Below, piece after piece: positions 4,366 through 24,866 of a stretch of 47,348 nucleotides of DNA. The position numbers were made by a program, and so were the translations under genes. Below the pieces are notes generated by a model that searched no databases, was not told the DNA's origin, and worked only from the letters and a program-made list of their open reading frames with translations. Origin of the DNA: a virus (lineage: Duplodnaviria; Caudoviricetes); IMG/VR virus record IMGVR_UViG_3300043171_000157, positions 1-47,348 of that record. One strand, written 5' to 3'. Position 1 is the first letter of the stretch, and every line of letters begins with the position of its first letter.

Positions 4366-4422
4366 GTCTTTTTTTCATAAATCGACTAAATTGCGAAAAT
4401 AGTTTAAAATTGAAGAAAGTAC

Positions 4423-4451
4423 TTGACTTTTAGGGTAAAATGTGTTATATT
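4423..4451 (+). promoter_or_regulatory. Sigma70-type promoter of the tRNA/ncRNA cluster
   Basis: TTGACT-N17-TATATT. Confidence 0.85.
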
Positions 4452-4456
4452 ATATA

Positions 4457-4530
4457 GGCGGGATAATTCAATTGGCAGAAGTGGAGGTTCATATCCTCCT
4501 AGTTTACCGGTTCAAGTCCGGTTCCCGCTA
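4457..4530 (+). tRNA. tRNA with CAT anticodon (Met or Ile2)
   Basis: Acceptor GGCGGGA/TCCCGCT, anticodon arm GGAGG-TTCATAT-CCTCC, T arm ACCGG-TTCAAGT-CCGGT. Confidence 0.9.
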
Positions 4531-4537
4531 TTTACGA

Positions 4538-4610
4538 CGGGGTATAGCTCAACTGGCAGAGCATCGCACTTTGAATGCGAAGGTTCTTAGTTCAAGTCTA
4601 AGTGCCCCCA
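4538..4610 (+). tRNA. tRNA-Gln(TTG)
   Basis: TCGCA-CTTTGAA-TGCGA anticodon arm, TAGCTCAACTGGCAGAGC D arm, TTCAAGT T loop, 1:72 mismatch. Confidence 0.92.
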
Positions 4611-4615
4611 TACGT

Positions 4616-4688
4616 GCGAGTTGTGGTGCAAGTGGCAGCATACGGGCCTGTGAAGCCTGAGATCTGGTATCAGTTGCCAGCAACCCGA
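4616..4688 (+). tRNA. tRNA-His(GTG) with atypical T loop
   Basis: CGGGC-CTGTGAA-GCCTG, G-1 present, T arm CTGGT-ATCAGTT-GCCAG. Confidence 0.7.
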
Positions 4689-4702
4689 TTAAAGAAGAAA
4701 AC

Positions 4703-5023
4703 TGACGGTGTAGGGTTACAGTAGACCTACTAACTTGTATGAGTCAAGCACTGCCGGCAATTAAAGCTCCTTACGCACTGGAAAGCCTAAAAAGCGGATC
4801 TGGATTTAAGCGCAAAACAGTCTATGGCTGGGGAGTGGGTCAAATTCGTAGACCGTAAGAATATACCTCCGATGCAACAGATGGGGGCTGGCAGAAGAGG
4901 CTTAAGGGTGGAGCAGTCGTCGATACAGGCCATCCGATATCTGATTAGCGATAGCTGTCTCCTGTAGGCTCTCACCTCCTCCTACCGACCCCTACAGGGG
5001 CTCTATCTGCTTTATTACCGTTA
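4703..5023 (+). ncRNA. Unclassified ~320-nt structured RNA
   Basis: GC-rich segment between tRNAs with no plus-strand ORF. The 5' and 3' ends pair, and at least six nested helices containing G.U pairs can be drawn. Confidence 0.75.
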
Positions 5024-5042
5024 CGATTTAAGCATGATACTC

Positions 5043-5114
5043 GCATAAGTAGTTCAATTGGCAGAATACCGGTCTCCAAAACCGATGATTAGGGTTCGAC
5101 TCCCTACTTGTGTG
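5043..5114 (+). tRNA. tRNA-Trp(CCA)
   Basis: GCATAAG/CTTGTGT acceptor, CGGT-CTCCAAA-ACCG anticodon arm, GGTTCGACTCC T arm. Confidence 0.9.
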
Positions 5115-5685
5115 CTTAATCAATAAAAAGGCCTAAGCTATCATTAGGAGCTTAAATTAAGGGAATATATGAATCACATTACAGCGTAACCAGAGTGTGA
5201 CTCTCGGAAGCATCTTCCAAGAATAATATATATCGAAAGCCAAAACAATGAAGAAGGGCAAATGATTATCCTAGAACTCAATCATAGGGTAGGGAATAAC
5301 TCCGTCCATCCAATTCTGAACAGCTCGAACTATCCATTATAGCTAATATAAGCCATATAAGTAACTGCTATGCGGTAGTAAAGTTTTAAGGGGTTACTCT
5401 AGGTATAGCTGGATACCCACGTTCACACCCATCCAACCCCACCCATCATAACCATGTGGGCTTGAGGGGTTCCGCATAACTCATTATAATTCATGTACTT
5501 AGTATGCATTCAGTGTATACATGTTTAGGTATTTGAGTAGTGTATACATAGTTTATACATTATATGCGGGGATTATGAGTGTACTAAGTTAAGTGCGGGG
5601 GTATATATCTAGACCTATTTGCTCTTTTTGATTCATTATAGCCTATCTTGAGCTTTAGTAGGTGCTTGACATTATTTAGAACACA

Positions 5686-6091: not shown

Positions 6092-6102
6092 GTAATTTGA
6101 GG

Positions 6103-6216
6103 CACTTGTGTCTCTTTAGGTATTATAGGTAAATACATTTGGTAAGTAATCGACGGACGAAACTCTAAATGTAACCCTAGGGCAAAAGCCTATAGTATCT
6201 AAAAAAGCACAAGGTG
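6103..6216 (+). repeat. Conserved-stem hairpin element 1
   Basis: CTTGTGTCTCTTTAGGTATTATAGG...CCTATAGTATCTAAAAAAGCACAAG. Confidence 0.85.
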
Positions 6217-6653
6217 GACAAGATGAAACACTTCTACAATAGACAACAAGTAGCTATAATAGTTAAAATAGCTAAACTATGCGGAATAGACCCCGATGAT
6301 GTTGCTATGGTATGGGTTGAATCTGGTTATGCTAAAGTGTGGCACGATAAATATACAAGGGACTAAATAAACTAAAGAGGTGAGTATGTTAGAGGAATTT
6401 GAGTATAATGAGCTTATGACTGAGCTTGATGATTTTGAGGAGAATGAGGAATTAGAGTGTGAAACAGATAACGCTATTAACTCAAAATGCACAAAGAGGG
6501 CAATAATCGAAAATGAATAGTAGATATTATGAGCTTAAGGCTCTCTTAGAGCGTGAAAGAAGACGACTACACCCAAATGTCAAGATTATTGATGATTATG
6601 AATACAAGATCAAAATCATGCTTGCAAGGGGTGTATGGTTATAATTGAGACTA

Positions 6654-6753
6654 TTGAGTCTCTTTAGGTATTATAGTTAAGTCTCCTTAGTGGGAAGCTG
6701 ACAAGGCGTGTAATTAAGTGAGAGCACTGGCTATAGTATCTAAAAAGAATCAA
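6654..6753 (+). repeat. Conserved-stem hairpin element 2
   Basis: TTGAGTCTCTTTAGGTATTATAGTT...GGCTATAGTATCTAAAAAGAATCAA, 25-position stem. Confidence 0.85.
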
Positions 6754-7338: not shown

Positions 7339-7447
7339 ATATATAAGGCAGTAAGGAACAACAAACAGTGCGCACGAGCTTCAAAGATGTTTGTTAGGCT
7401 AGGTTAGAATCCTAGAGCTAAAATGCACTAAAACAGGTAGGTACATC

Positions 7448-7961: not shown

Positions 7962-8106
7962 TTAGAGTTTGACAATAACGTCAATAATAAGGAGATATAT
8001 TATGGAATTATTAGCAGGAGTAATAATTGTAGCGATAGTAGTAATGATAATTTTCTAAGTATTATGGGTTTATGGTATTCCTAGTGGTGATGCGCTGAAA
8101 ACCACC

Positions 8107-8269
8107 TTTGAGTCTCTTTAGGCTCTATATGTAAGCAGTGAGGTGGCAATAAGAATAGTTAACGGCTAAGGGTGACTACATACATTAAGACTCTGTATTG
8201 TAACACGACTAGACAAGAACTGTGTGAGCCTAAGTACCGTATTGCATATAGCGTCTAAAAAGACCCAAA
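8107..8269 (+). repeat. Conserved-stem hairpin element 3
   Basis: TTTGAGTCTCTTTAGGCTCTATATGTAA...TTGCATATAGCGTCTAAAAAGACCCAAA, 28-position stem. Confidence 0.85.
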
Positions 8270-8291
8270 CAACTAAACAGGTAGGTAGCAA

Positions 8292-9349: not shown

Positions 9350-9458
9350 TTGACTTTTGAGTATTAATAACTTAACTTAAATAAGACTTAATAAATAAGT
9401 TAAACGGTAAATTTTGATTAATTAATCGCTTGACTTTCAAACAAAAATAATGTAGTTT
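9350..9458 (+). promoter_or_regulatory. Two tandem sigma70-type promoters
   Basis: TTGACT-N17-TAACTT (9350) and TTGACT-N17-TAGTTT (9430). Confidence 0.7.
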
Positions 9459-9501
9459 AAATAAGAGACAACATTAAAACGATAAACAGGTAGGTAAAAA
9501 A

Positions 9502-9747: not shown

Positions 9748-9936
9748 GTGGGCGTGAAAACAAACTTACCAACAGTATTTAAGTTAATGAATTTAGATAC
9801 TGTTGAAAAAATAAATAAAAGACTGTTGGGTAATTTTGAAGATGTAGAACGATACCAAGATGGCATGCTTAAAAAATTGCAAGAAAACAATTGCATTATG
9901 GCTCTAGTTAAAGAGCACAATGTAGAATTAAAATAG
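9748..9936 (+). CDS. Hypothetical protein
   Basis: ORF packed between neighbours. Confidence 0.55.
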   Translation: MGVKTNLPTVFKLMNLDTVEKINKRLLGNFEDVERYQDGMLKKLQENNCIMALVKEHNVELK

Positions 9937-10076
9937 GTAGGTAGGTATGAAAGATAAGAGAATGAAGATTAGAATAGTTAGTAAAGGCTCTAAGAAGAAA
10001 GCCTCAAAAATTAAAAAGAATCAATCATCAATTGAGGCATACAGAGAGTGGCAAATACACAACAAAGTAGTATGCA

Positions 10077-10466: not shown

Positions 10467-10733
10467 ATGAGTGGATTAATAATATTTTTAATATACATAG
10501 CAGTGGTGCTAATTGGAACTATAATACTTGGCATGATTTGGGATAAATTAAGGCATGATCAGGACGAACTTGCTGTTGTCATCCTTGTCTTATGGCCGTT
10601 TGCATTAACCTTAATTCCACCATGTTGGCTTATATATTTCATATTCAAATCTCTCTTTACATTTGGAGAGTTGTTGGGTGAGAAAATATCAACGGCATTT
10701 AAAAAGGTTGTGAGAAGCGCTAGTAAATACTAA
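10467..10733 (+). CDS. Two-TM membrane protein
   Basis: AAGGAG SD before ATG 10467; two hydrophobic segments with LWP motif. Confidence 0.75.
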   Translation: MSGLIIFLIYIAVVLIGTIILGMIWDKLRHDQDELAVVILVLWPFALTLIPPCWLIYFIFKSLFTFGELLGEKISTAFKKVVRSASKY

Positions 10734-10745
10734 AATGGAGACAAT

Positions 10746-11048
10746 ATGTTAAGGTCAATAAGAAAACCAACAAAGAAACCCAATGAAGAGATATTGGAGA
10801 TTACACTTAAAGACGTTGAGGAAGAAATTAGGTGCGGATATATGTATGGCAGTAGAGACAATAAGGGTAATGTTGTTTTATATTTGCCAGATTATAGGTC
10901 TAGCACAGGGGTAATAAATATCGTGTATATTGGCAAGAAAAGCGACGGGGGTCTTTCAATTGAATCGGTTGGTGAATTACTTAAAAACGACTATAAGGAT
11001 AAAATACTTAAAAAGATAGGCTCTTATAGAGATATTGGGCTATTATGA
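10746..11048 (+). CDS. Early paralog family member A
   Basis: EITLKDVEEEIRCGYMY...KILKKIGSYRDI. Confidence 0.7.
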   Translation: MLRSIRKPTKKPNEEILEITLKDVEEEIRCGYMYGSRDNKGNVVLYLPDYRSSTGVINIVYIGKKSDGGLSIESVGELLKNDYKDKILKKIGSYRDIGLL

Positions 11049-11766: not shown

Positions 11767-11861
11767 TGATATATTTATTATTAATGTTACCATGTGTAAC
11801 CGGATTTATAATTGGTGCAATGGTAGCGGTAGTGGAGATAGTATTAACAAGGTAGGAACGT

Positions 11862-12152: not shown

Positions 12153-12164
12153 AAGTAGGTAGGT

Positions 12165-12473
12165 ATGCAAGTATTAAAGAGAAAGTTTAAGACCTGTTTT
12201 AGTGAGAAAAAAGAAACACTTAAACAAGTAAAAGAAAACATATTTAAATATCCTAGATCACTGTATGTTCATTCTTGGAATAGTAGGTTTGTATATATAG
12301 CTAATGATGACGATAAGACAATAAGTTGCATAAACATAGACGCCCCATTAATGTATAAACAGTCTCAAGTATTAAGAGAGCTTGAGAAAGATTTTAATGA
12401 GGATAAACTAATAAAAGTTTCCTCACTTAAAGAAGCGTTTAGAGTGCCAAAACATTTACATTATAACAGGTAG
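12165..12473 (+). CDS. Early paralog family member C
   Basis: KETLKQVKENIFK..SLY...NEDKLIKVSSLKEAF. Confidence 0.7.
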   Translation: MQVLKRKFKTCFSEKKETLKQVKENIFKYPRSLYVHSWNSRFVYIANDDDKTISCINIDAPLMYKQSQVLRELEKDFNEDKLIKVSSLKEAFRVPKHLHYNR

Positions 12474-12479
12474 GTAGAA

Positions 12480-12755: not shown

Positions 12756-12956
12756 GTACACTAGTGTTCTATGCTCTAAGGTAAGGGCTAAGAGGGCACA
12801 AAGAGTACAATCAGATAAGACTATTAATATGATGAAACCGGCGTTGAATCACCAATTCCATCTATTAAGATTCTTACAGGAGCACCCTATGTATAGGGCT
12901 GATTGTGTAATGTTGCATAATAATCATTACTCTCCAAAAATTAATTAATTATTCGC

Positions 12957-12985
12957 TTGACTTTTCAAGTAAAATAATTTATATT
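12957..12985 (+). promoter_or_regulatory. Sigma70-type promoter
   Basis: TTGACT-N17-TATATT. Confidence 0.8.
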
Positions 12986-13183
12986 ATATAAGAGGCTTTA
13001 AACATTAAATGTTTGGCTTTAAAAAATTAAACGGTAGGTAGTTATGGCGGTTCAAGAAAATAAACCGGATCTAAAATTTAGATTAACGCTGTTAAGAATA
13101 TTTATTGAGACTCTTGAGTCAAAAGGTAAAATAACAGCAGAAGAGAGAAGTTACATGGTTAGTCTCTTTGATAAGGAGGGATA

Positions 13184-14418: not shown

Positions 14419-14453
14419 TTTAATATGTATAACAATAAAATAGGTAGGTGTGA

Positions 14454-17981: not shown

Positions 17982-18298
17982 ATGTTGATGAATTTTCAAA
18001 AGATATACTAAACGCAATTTGTGAAGAAAGAGGAATTGATATACCTAAAACAGATGCTACAAATATAGCGGGCCTCATAGCTAAAGATGAAGAGTATGAT
18101 TTTATGAGCCTAGTGTATGAAGGTATTATGATAGATGGAAAAATAACTTATATAGTTCCTGACAAATATTTGATGGTGATACCTATTAATAAAGAACGTG
18201 GCGAGGTGGCTATGGATTTGATGGAAGAATTTGAGTGTGAGCACGTTGATTATTTTGATGGGTTCGGTGAGTATAAATTATTTTACATATGTTGGTAG
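17978..18298 (+). CDS. Acidic hypothetical protein
   Basis: ATGA-coupled ORF. Confidence 0.7.
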   Translation: MNVDEFSKDILNAICEERGIDIPKTDATNIAGLIAKDEEYDFMSLVYEGIMIDGKITYIVPDKYLMVIPINKERGEVAMDLMEEFECEHVDYFDGFGEYKLFYICW

Positions 18299-18301
18299 GT
18301 T

Positions 18302-20508: not shown

Positions 20509-21741
20509 ATGGGTAATAATTATGATAAGGAATTAGAACAAAGAATACTCTCTACCTGTGAAGGCAAGAGATCTGTATTCTCTGATCTTACTCCCGAAGA
20601 TTTTTATTACTCAAGCCACCAAGAAATATATAGAGCGTTCGTAGATGGTAACTTTGATTTAACACTAGAACAGAACAAGGCTGTTTACGGATATGATGTA
20701 GAGGATTATTTTAGGGCAATGGAATCGTCTGCCTCAGATGAAGCCCACTTAGTGCCGAACCTAATAGAGCTATCTGTAAGACGTAAAAGAAAGCAAGAAC
20801 TGATTAAAGAGATTGAGCGTGTGGACGACTTATCAATTCGCCTACCTACCGTAAGGAATCTAGGCGCTCAATTTCTATCAGGTAAAAAACTGGCAGAGGT
20901 GTGTCGGGAGAAGTGGAAGAATAAAAAGAAAATAAATCTAGGTAGGTTTGAGCATTTGAATAGAGATATATATGAGTTAAGTAGAAAACATGTATTGCTT
21001 ATAGCGGGTAGACCGGGAACCGGTAAGACAGGGTTTGCATGGCAGTTAGCACAAGAGATAGCTAGTCAACTTGGTGAAAAGTTTATATTCTTTTCTGGTG
21101 AAATGGCTGACGAGGCAATGCTGTCAAGAATGGCAAAGACAAAGTTTTATGAATGTAATCCAGAGGCAAGCGTTAAAGAATCTAATCAATGGTTCTTCTA
21201 TAATGTAAAGTATGATGAAAATTTTGCAGAAGAAATTGTAGAAGAGATGTGCCCTAATATGGAGATGTTAGATATAGCTGGTATGACAATACCAAAGATA
21301 AAGGCGTACATAAAGACCGCAAAAGAACTGTGGGGAGAGAGAGTTGGTACGATACTTATAGACTACGTTCAATTGATAACAGGAGAGGGTTCTGAGACTA
21401 AAGATAAACAAGGTTGGGTGGCTAAACAACTACAGATTATAGCTAAAGAGTTTGATGTAAGGATAATAGCGTTAACACAATTAAATAGAACAGCCGAGGG
21501 TGAGAGGCCGAGAAAAGATCAGATAAAAGAAAGCTCTGTTTGGGAGGATGTGGCTGATGAAATTTGGGCACTATACCATCATAAGGACTTACCACAAGCT
21601 ATGTGTGTTGAGTTCTTAAAGAGTAGACATAATGGCGCTACAGGTATAGGTATGCTTAAAAAAGACGGGCTGTACTTTGATAACCCGTCTGATACAGAGT
21701 TAGAGATTTGGAGAGATATTTGGAGAGGGGGAGAGAAATGA
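20509..21741 (+). CDS. dnaB: DnaB-like SF4 replicative helicase
   Basis: N-domain PEDFY...HQEIY, Walker A GRPGTGKT, FSGEM, IDYVQL, LTQLNR, KSRH. Confidence 0.92.
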   Translation: MGNNYDKELEQRILSTCEGKRSVFSDLTPEDFYYSSHQEIYRAFVDGNFDLTLEQNKAVYGYDVEDYFRAMESSASDEAHLVPNLIELSVRRKRKQELIKEIERVDDLSIRLPTVRNLGAQFLSGKKLAEVCREKWKNKKKINLGRFEHLNRDIYELSRKHVLLIAGRPGTGKTGFAWQLAQEIASQLGEKFIFFSGEMADEAMLSRMAKTKFYECNPEASVKESNQWFFYNVKYDENFAEEIVEEMCPNMEMLDIAGMTIPKIKAYIKTAKELWGERVGTILIDYVQLITGEGSETKDKQGWVAKQLQIIAKEFDVRIIALTQLNRTAEGERPRKDQIKESSVWEDVADEIWALYHHKDLPQAMCVEFLKSRHNGATGIGMLKKDGLYFDNPSDTELEIWRDIWRGGEK

Positions 21742-24504: not shown

Positions 24505-24684
24505 ATGCCATATGTTTCAATTAAAGGAGTAGTTAGTAATTCAGACAGTTTATACGGGTGTTGCCCAGAATGTAATTGCTATGTAGAGAATAATTATAGG
24601 GTGTGTCCATCGTGTAAATCAATATTAACTTTCCAAAGTTTTGAAAGTTATAAAAATTCTAAAGTTGAGAAAAAAAGTACTTGA
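24505..24684 (+). CDS. Zinc-ribbon mini-protein
   Basis: CPECN...VCPSC. Confidence 0.65.
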   Translation: MPYVSIKGVVSNSDSLYGCCPECNCYVENNYRVCPSCKSILTFQSFESYKNSKVEKKST

Positions 24685-24709
24685 CTTTTATAGTGAAATA
24701 GGTTATATT
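24681..24709 (+). promoter_or_regulatory. Sigma70-type promoter
   Basis: TTGACT-N17-TATATT. Confidence 0.85.
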
Positions 24710-24717
24710 ATATAGGA

Positions 24718-24795: not shown

Positions 24796-24866
24796 TATCT
24801 GATAGCTCAAGATAGAGTCCACGACCGTGATGTGGAGGATGTGGGTATCGAATCCCACTCAGATAT
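24796..24866 (+). tRNA. Atypical tRNA-like RNA (anticodon ambiguous, CGT in a 7-nt loop)
   Basis: Perfect acceptor TATCTGA/TCAGATA, short D loop, CCACG-ACCGTGA-TGTGG, 8-nt T loop. Confidence 0.55.

Follow-up and report, generated by a model that had tools for sequence, protein, structure and literature searches.

Genomic Setting of the tRNA Operon

The window considered here, that is, the whole stretch of DNA that was analysed, is the 47,348 bp record of an uncultured marine-sediment phage with direct terminal repeats. The phage encodes a large terminase, a P22-type portal, a major head protein, a DnaB helicase, Sak and exonuclease VIII, and cultured matches to its proteins are only about 25% identical; the structural genes sit on the minus strand, and the early and middle genes on the plus strand between about 5.8 and 30 kb. 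The locus of interest is a tRNA operon in which a sigma70-like site is followed, in this order, by tRNA-Met, tRNA-Gln, tRNA-His, a spacer and tRNA-Trp (Table 1). The spacer ahead of tRNA-Trp extends over 354 nt where the remaining tRNA spacers of the cluster measure 6-7 nt. The promoter-like site of the operon (4422-4461) belongs to a repeat family, D3, found again at 9429-9468, 12956-12995 and about 24679-24716; this promoter family (CTTGACTTT...TTATATTATATA) stands upstream of both tRNA clusters and of two GGTAGG genes, the sites at 9429-9468 and 12956-12995 preceding genes 9502 and 13044, respectively. A seventh tRNA-like gene, at 24796-24866, is matched by Rfam at 33 bits without an ARAGORN call, its anticodon loop being apparently enlarged, and an encoded CCA is absent from most tRNA genes of the phage.

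Table 1. Features of the tRNA operon, its large spacer and the GGTAGG leaders (positions in the window).
Feature	Position	Strand	Remark
Sigma70-type promoter-like site, TTGACT-17-TG-TATATT	4423..4451	+	ahead of the tRNA/ncRNA operon; putative function
tRNA-Met(CAT)	4457..4530	+	
tRNA-Gln(TTG)	4538..4610	+	
tRNA-His(GTG)	4617..4688	+	
tRNA spacer, 354 nt, candidate non-coding RNA	4689..5042	+	GC-rich; no Rfam, tRNA or tmRNA match
ACCUACU, second complement of GUAGGU	4725..4731	+	internal pairing possible with 4710-14 or 4834-41
Possible long-range helix AAGCCU (4783-88)/AGGCUU (4898-4903)	4783..4903	+	RNase P P4-like flanks
GGGGAGUGGG, internal complement of the loop	4830..4839	+	possible pseudoknot partner
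Long interrupted stalk, 19 bp, predicted	4947..5011	+	local fold
C-rich loop CUCUCACCUCCUCCUACCGACC, 22 nt	4969..4990	+	top of predicted hairpin
tRNA-Trp(CCA)	5043..5115	+	
GGTAGG leader of ORF 7448 (124 aa)	7436..7441	+	
GGTAGG leader of ORF 8292 (82 aa)	8280..8285	+	
GGTAGG leader of ORF 9502 (81 aa)	9489..9494	+	
Tandem GGTAGG leader of ORF 9947 (46 aa)	9936..9945	+	
GGTAGG(A) leader of ORF 11862 (96 aa)	11851..11856	+	
GGTAGG leader of ORF 12165 (102 aa)	12158..12163	+	1 nt from ATG
GGTAGG leader of ORF 12480 (91 aa)	12469..12474	+	
GGTAGG leader of ORF 13044 (46 aa)	13033..13038	+	
GGTAGG leader of ORF 14454 (570 aa, no family)	14443..14448	+	
GGTAGG leader of ORF 18302 (144 aa)	18294..18299	+	2 nt from ATG

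The Spacer as a Candidate Non-Coding RNA

The GC content of the spacer is 48% against 38% for the genome, a value reached by only 13 of 940 windows. Its two longest open reading frames have scores unlike those of phage genes and are absent from the protein collection (exact-sequence look-up); the plus-strand frame of 47 codons (4824-4967) was rejected on a codon score of -0.006, compared with 0.30 +/- 0.10, and on its lack of a Shine-Dalgarno (SD) sequence. A search of the whole record against Rfam returned seven tRNA matches only, and the spacer itself (4690-5042) matched none of 4227 families at E<=10. These families include the known large phage non-coding RNAs GOLLD, ROOL, OLE and raiA, and none of their covariance models was matched by the spacer at that threshold. 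A tmRNA was rejected as well, since ARAGORN called none down to 85% of its threshold, below which only overlapping artefacts appeared, and Rfam gave no match. Likenesses to hammerhead and HDV-like/theta ribozymes, a group I intron, a T-box, a cobalamin riboswitch, a Y RNA and the D-arm of a class II tRNA were noticed by eye against consensus motifs; all were discarded for a poor fit of their core features and the lack of any Rfam match. The hairpin resembling a class II tRNA D-arm lies at 4794-4813 and a weak T-arm-like segment (GGGUCAAAUUC), also seen by eye, at 4835-4849; ARAGORN places no tRNA at either. The RNA is a member of no tested family.

Taken as a whole, the spacer folds no better than its shuffles (z of +1.19), its helix counts fall within the null and the complementarity of its ends into a terminal stem has a P of 0.17. 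Among 70-nt windows over 4440-5349, the lowest folding z, -2.95, belongs to 4950-5019, the window that holds the hairpin described below. Such z-scores decide little here because the phage tRNAs themselves score weakly, between about -2.2 and +0.6. No variants over the spacer were found in one marine-sediment DNA run that is possibly the source of the phage DNA. The spacer presumably gives rise to a discrete RNA; the sequence feature described below is real and moderately unlikely, and probably lies within an uncatalogued phage RNA.

A Predicted C-Rich Loop with an Anti-Shine-Dalgarno Sequence

The initial annotation had singled out the last hairpin of the spacer, whose loop would display an anti-SD sequence next to the complement of the phage's own GGTAGG motif. 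The sequence at 4959-5000 is as first described, ACCTAC is present at 4725-30, and the inner helix 4959-68/4991-5000 is predicted to be the strongest of the spacer. The placement of the loop at the top of this hairpin holds for the local fold, in which the stem pairs have probabilities of 0.96-1.0, but less so in larger contexts: the probability of the inner stem falls to 0.25-0.39 when the whole spacer is folded at 37 C and to 0.09 for the whole operon, and is less at lower temperature. The predicted accessibility of the loop is higher, bases 4974-4986 being unpaired at 0.83-0.95 in the fold of 4700-5025 and at 0.66-0.89 in that of 4690-5042 (37 C, pseudoknots lying outside the model).

The loop combines an anti-SD 9-mer (4972-80), two overlapping CCUCCU repeats (4975-80 and 4978-83) and CCUACC (4981-86). 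The 9-mer, TCACCTCCT, is the sole copy in the genome on either strand, and in three genomes the 16S rRNA terminates 3' in GGATCACCTCCTTTCT, so that the identity of the loop to the 16S tail amounts to 9 nt, as claimed at the outset. A tail match of at least 9 nt occurs in 103 of 20,000 dinucleotide shuffles of 4690-5042; CACCTCCT with CCTACC within 16 nt occurs in 9 of 50,000, which corresponds to 9 of the 312 shuffles having CACCTCCT, and three or more CCTAC in 535 of 50,000. The loop RNA is a single case, present in a single copy.

The GGTAGG Leader Motif

GGTAGG occurs 15 times on the plus strand and 9 times on the minus strand, and AGGTAGGT 10 times on the plus strand and never on the minus strand; between 5800 and 15000, 10 copies of AGGTAGG are found, where 300 shuffles average 0.94 copies and never exceed 5. 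The motif lies within 22 nt upstream of ten plus-strand starts, all of early or middle genes, which bears out the first estimate of about ten early genes, and three of the small GGTAGG genes are present in the protein collection. Some leaders have longer flanks in common (AAACAGGTAGGT, three times; family D5). That the loop complements GGTAGG(A) proved only partly correct: CCTACC (4981-86) complements GGTAGG, but GGTAGGA occurs in only one of the ten leaders. The leader motif is mostly GGTAGGT and the pairing is therefore 6 nt long in eight leaders and 7 nt in two. No mention of AGGTAGGT was found in the literature that a search at the level of titles and listings turned up.

Several other elements of the same genome deserve mention beside this motif. 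AGGTAGGT is also found inside the DnaB helicase gene (20941-20958), followed 9 nt later by an in-frame TTG, and may mark an internal start giving a C-terminal product of 261 aa. Near the packaging genes, a small zinc-ribbon protein resembling Com is encoded on the minus strand at 236-463, with matches to a PHROG translational regulator (E 1.6e-4) and to Pfam Com (E 0.008); it is a possible protein partner for the leader motif. Finally, two sets of intergenic repeats are found in the earliest region, at 6097-6132, 6645-6680 and 8099-8134 and at 6188-6212, 6729-6753 and 8244-8268 (families D2 and D4); their motifs (TTGAGTCTCTTTAGG... and TATAGTATCTAAAAAG) are unlike sigma70 sites, and they possibly form a phage-specific promoter or operator cassette.

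Predicted Pairing of the Loop with Leaders

Pairing was predicted against 63 gene starts chosen by eye from the list of open reading frames, doubtful starts being left out. Once opening energies are taken into account, the loop outranks every other site of the RNA for all ten GGUAGG leaders, for 21 of the 35 other plus-strand starts and for 6 of the 18 late starts. A perfect complement to the loop of at least 6 nt is present in 25 of 45 plus-strand starts versus 2 of 18 late ones; without the GGUAGG class, whose match to CCUACC follows from its definition, the counts are 15 of 35 versus 2 of 18 (p=0.029). This contrast between early and late genes is not specific to the RNA, since the 16S tail itself also binds the late genes more weakly (-6.5 versus -8.7 and -8.3). 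For both leader sets, the real order of the bases does better than orders obtained by shuffling the whole loop (P=0.019 and 0.012), but shuffling its 3' ten bases alone gives a P of only 0.045. Any C-rich unpaired loop scores against G-rich leaders, and the strongest loop duplexes genome-wide involve mostly G-rich stretches other than the GGTAGG leaders.

By itself, the anti-SD 9-mer pairs with the GGUAGG leaders over no more than 4-5 nt, at least 6 nt being reached in none of the ten, compared with all ten for the full loop; CCUACC thus adds exactly this class. This is the part of the idea of a dedicated pair between the RNA and AGGTAGGT, put forward in the initial annotation, that is best supported. 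The remainder argues against a private partnership: pairing is limited to 6 nt in eight of the ten leaders, the loop reads UCCUACCG where a perfect complement would read ACCUACCU, the A and the U that usually flank AGGUAGGU (before and after it, respectively) find no match in the loop, and a partner inside the RNA is predicted to bind as strongly as the average leader. Moreover, the mean duplex energy with the loop is -13.2 kcal/mol for the GGUAGG leaders and -13.3 kcal/mol for the 18 leaders with a canonical SD (AGGAGG). Pairing in trans with ribosome-binding sites, as first proposed, is plausible, but AGGAGG leaders would be bound equally.

Weighing of Alternative Explanations

The C-rich loop could instead pair inside the RNA, through a pseudoknot or a kissing interaction with GGGGAGUGGG at 4830-39, with 4707-15 or with 4905-13, its likeness to 16S rRNA being then a by-product; this is possible, if somewhat doubtful. 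Constitutive pairing with 4830-39 had been raised at the start as a reading opposed to action in trans, and the core of the loop does form 9 bp with 4828-41 at -12.9 kcal/mol, which equals the mean target in trans, yet this helix requires a bulge and G-U pairs and has a probability of 0.002 in nested folding, which cannot score pseudoknots. Several G-rich tracts, together with three CCUAC facing two GUAGG, would allow alternative internal helices; bases 4973-76 pair with 4707-10 at 0.22-0.59 depending on temperature (4690-5042 ensemble), and the crossing helices 4751-58/4887-94 and 4783-88/4898-4903 suggest a knotted RNA. Internal pairing does not, however, require the exact UCACCUCCU, and it leaves the ACC end unused. 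A reading by chance, in which a GC-rich insert that is decayed or unrelated makes up the spacer and AGGTAGGT is an SD variant that spread as early-leader cassettes were duplicated, with no link to the loop, appears unlikely. It draws on matches of only 6-9 nt that were noticed in hindsight (10% of shuffles contain CCTACC on its own), on the shared longer flanks of the leaders, which have no complement in the RNA, on the failure of every search to return a homologue, and on AGGUAGGU needing no special partner because its duplex with the ordinary 16S tail reaches about -8 kcal/mol. Against it stand the joint probability of the anti-SD 8-mer and CCTACC given above, the lowest local folding z of the region at the hairpin, and the retention of so long a GC-rich non-coding insert among tRNA spacers of a few nucleotides. 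The initial annotation also suggested mimicry of the 16S tail. Such a mimic, either free or paired into an SD:anti-SD duplex with a G-rich strand of the RNA itself, would be a ligand for a protein, whether a ribosomal protein such as bS21 or bS1 or a tail-cutting host nuclease, and would serve as a decoy next to tRNAs that perhaps substitute for cleaved ones of the host. In favour of this, an SD/ASD mimic in OLE RNA (CCUCCU paired with AGUAGG) binds bS21 (PMC12054373, in excerpt), a MazF toxin cuts 16S rRNA at CACCU just before the anti-SD (PMC12274833, in excerpt), a motif that the loop holds, and phage tRNAs have been proposed to evade tRNA-targeting defences (PMC10264068, in excerpt); the match also reaches 5' of the SD-pairing core (UCA). 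The real tail is, however, a free 3' end and not a loop, the 16S ends from three genomes differ upstream and no helix-45-like context is present, the second CCU repeat and ACC are absent from 16S rRNA, and the scanned phage proteins include no bS21-like or toxin-like gene, all of which makes such mimicry rather improbable.

The two remaining alternatives concern the surroundings of the loop. The core of the spacer (4766-4914) could be a reduced RNase P-like fold handling the flanking tRNAs, with the anti-SD hairpin as an accessory 3' domain. GGAAAGCCU and CAGAAGAGGCUUA, which form 6 bp with each other, look like CR-I and CR-V, a descriptor of this P4-like pair is matched by 17 of 50,000 shuffles, short P1-, P2- and P19-like helices occur in the right order, and the setting is a tRNA operon. 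In comparison with RNase P RNAs of the bacterial type A and of the archaeal type T (PMC3579882, in part), the spacer shares the P4-like long-range pairing and the GGAA and CAGAA..GGCUUA flanks, and differs by the absence of a bulged U, P3 and a full CR-IV and in the first bases of CR-I and CR-V. GAGGAA(A/G)GUC with ACA(G/A)AA is found in 31 of 32 real RNase P RNAs, whereas the spacer has CUGGAAAGCC and GCAGAA. Set against the CR-V consensus ACA(G/A)AA..G(C)UUA, GCAGAAGAGGCUUA pairs over 6 bp with the CR-I-like segment but differs in its first base and is one base shorter. The two regions are 113 nt apart versus 200 or more in real RNase P RNAs, the CAG would be occupied by the 8-bp helix 4751-58/4887-94, and the likeness was chosen by eye after about ten families, the corresponding pattern scan giving five matches, all unrelated. 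Membership in the RNase P RNAs was rejected, as GAGGAA(A/G)GUC in CR-I and the bulged U of P4 are lacking and no covariance model (RF00010, RF02357) matches at E<=10; a reduced relative is very improbable. The loop could also be the reverse complement of a ribosome-binding site (GGTAGGAGGAG) serving a minus-strand gene of 62 codons with a GTG at 4975. The frame 4975-4787 has GGTAGG 5 nt before this GTG, a spacing as in the early genes, and start codons lie at ribosome-binding-site spacing on the opposite strand in 10 of 29 distinct CACCTCCT-near-tRNA matches elsewhere. Its codon score of -0.32 is, however, that of non-coding DNA (it lies below all 137 pieces of real genes and is equalled or exceeded by 77 of 110 antisense frames), it has no Pfam match, it is absent from the protein collection (exact-sequence look-up, which a GTG start may affect), and it lies in antisense orientation to the tRNA operon, where the one promoter candidate upstream on the minus strand is weak (9/12). 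This gene was rejected, and the reading that depends on it is barely credible.

Search for Relatives

No homologue of the RNA was returned by blastn against phages or plasmids, nor by a covariance model that was built from the single sequence and run on 89 sources and 141 genomes. In small-genome bacteria, this model gave one weak match (E 0.26) in the 141 genomes and blastn only scattered matches of 18-35 nt, in 12 of 301 genomes. Scans of viral sequences gave five matches to the RNase P-like pair, none related; 120 of about 360 loci matching the hairpin stem, among which neither a C-rich anti-SD loop nor similarity by nhmmer was seen; and 49 loci, 29 of them distinct, with CACCTCCT 55-85 nt before a tRNA D-arm, none homologous. 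Among 120 of about 280 loci with AAACAGGTAGGT..ATG, none has more than three AGGTAGG copies on the matched strand, and no relatedness is seen beyond three shared-domain protein matches. The relatives by terminase and portal, at 25-46% identity (20 and 12 loci and the 14 records in which they lie, with 44 of 64 parts covered in the metagenome scan), show neither an RNA of this kind nor an enriched motif; by protein, the nearest relatives are a 38.7-kb contig (terminase 59%, portal 50%) and a terminase fragment (68%). Six supplementary files of PMC10690425 contain no match to the loop and core motifs.

These searches brought up some structured elements elsewhere. In a group of large, unrelated phages (L163, L169, L178 and L190), a conserved 6-bp hairpin with the loop CCUCCUCUC (795-815 in L169) lies just upstream of tRNA-Asn, with a mean column identity of 94%; it is followed by a second hairpin and has no opposite-strand start codon at ribosome-binding-site spacing. 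This analogue is not a measure of enrichment because it is one of the 29 distinct matches of a motif-selected pattern. A distant relative (L200:8300-8709, minus strand; portal 27%) has a tmRNA-like gene with a CCA end beside tRNA-Tyr and two tRNA-Leu genes. Five viral contigs (L032, L044, L106, L129 and L131) share a recurring structured element, CCTGTAGG-GGTCAC...GTGGCC-CCTACAGG, unrelated to the loop RNA, and one contig of a small genome holds two 276-nt RNase P RNA copies below the Rfam cut-off (G005:C7:6116-6391 and 10594-10869; L246 and L248).

Proposed Role of the Loop RNA

Since the hairpin loop mirrors both the ordinary ribosome-binding signal and the early variant of the phage, it likely damps translation by base-pairing. 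In the reading that we prefer, at a probability of about 0.35, the hairpin forms the 3' domain of a non-coding RNA that is transcribed together with the tRNAs, and its open loop is a broad seed directed against ribosome-binding sites, damping leaders of both the AGGAGG and the GGUAGG type. Transcription would start at the sigma70-like site of the operon, and a stable RNA would be released during tRNA processing and might accumulate over infection; the open C-rich loop is predicted to pair in trans with both types of leader over 6-9 bp, which would lower initiation on early, middle and host messages and favour the late genes with their weaker SD sites. Tentatively, the loop is then a general anti-SD device that also covers the phage variant, not a lock and key for AGGUAGGU.

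A stricter version of this model, a translation timer made of RNA, is considerably less likely. The phage would use a private SD variant (AGGUAGGU) for its earliest genes and place in its tRNA operon a 350-nt RNA with a composite guide loop (CACCUCCU and CCUACC) that silences host-type and private leaders alike and spares the late genes. The literature turned up by a search of titles and listings holds no description of an RNA from a phage tRNA operon that is aimed at ribosome-binding sites.

Comparison with Known Systems

RNAs with anti-SD loops are known as bacterial regulators, and by analogy the loop RNA most plausibly works as they do. RsaE and RoxS are such regulators in Firmicutes, with a C-rich (UCCC) loop and the same proposed seeding as the phage loop. 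The hairpins of RNAIII are likewise proposed to seed with an unpaired C-rich loop on G-rich ribosome-binding sites (PMC4615179, in part); the phage RNA differs from these Firmicutes regulators in being phage-encoded and, as proposed, co-transcribed with tRNAs and has no sequence or Rfam similarity to them. There is a likeness in design to the Cuckoo/alpha-r14 small RNAs (RSs0680/CcsR, NfeR1), in which an anti-SD pyrimidine motif in a hairpin loop silences targets at the ribosome-binding site, by proposed occlusion (PMC4615179 and PMC10746234, in excerpt). Their motif CCUCCUCCC agrees with CCUCCUCCU of the phage loop at 8 of 9 positions, and they have 2-4 adjacent motif hairpins where the phage RNA has one, CCTCCTCC occurring once in its genome (PMC4615179, in excerpt). 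Unlike them, the phage RNA is a 354-nt insert in a tRNA operon with a 22-nt loop and an added CCUACC; membership was rejected on the 8/9 motif, the single hairpin and the lack of an Rfam match at E<=10 over 4690-5042. By comparison, OLE RNA is also a large non-coding RNA with CCUCCU and an available internal purine partner, but its bS21-bound P6 mimic of the SD/ASD pair sits in a stem of a conserved 600-nt RNA (PMC12054373, in part) and that of the phage in a predicted loop, with no match to OLE in Rfam.

On the side of the leaders, the start-associated sequences of cluster K mycobacteriophages are short, strand-biased repeats at the ribosome-binding sites of non-structural genes (PMC3203893, in excerpt), as is the motif described here. 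The cluster K motif, GGGATAGGAGCCC, is longer than AGGTAGGT and belongs to an unrelated phage, and its RNA or protein partner is left unexplained in the excerpted source, whereas the phage genome here contains a candidate partner; if the preferred reading is true, the loop RNA offers a kind of partner for such unexplained repeats. The likeness to RegB and RegA of phage T4 is one of function only: these phage-encoded factors shut down the translation of early genes at the SD or initiation region and are proteins, a GGAG nuclease and a repressor (PMC3014915, in part), whereas the agent would here be an RNA. Should the loop act as proposed, it would thus be the RNA counterpart of RegB and RegA.
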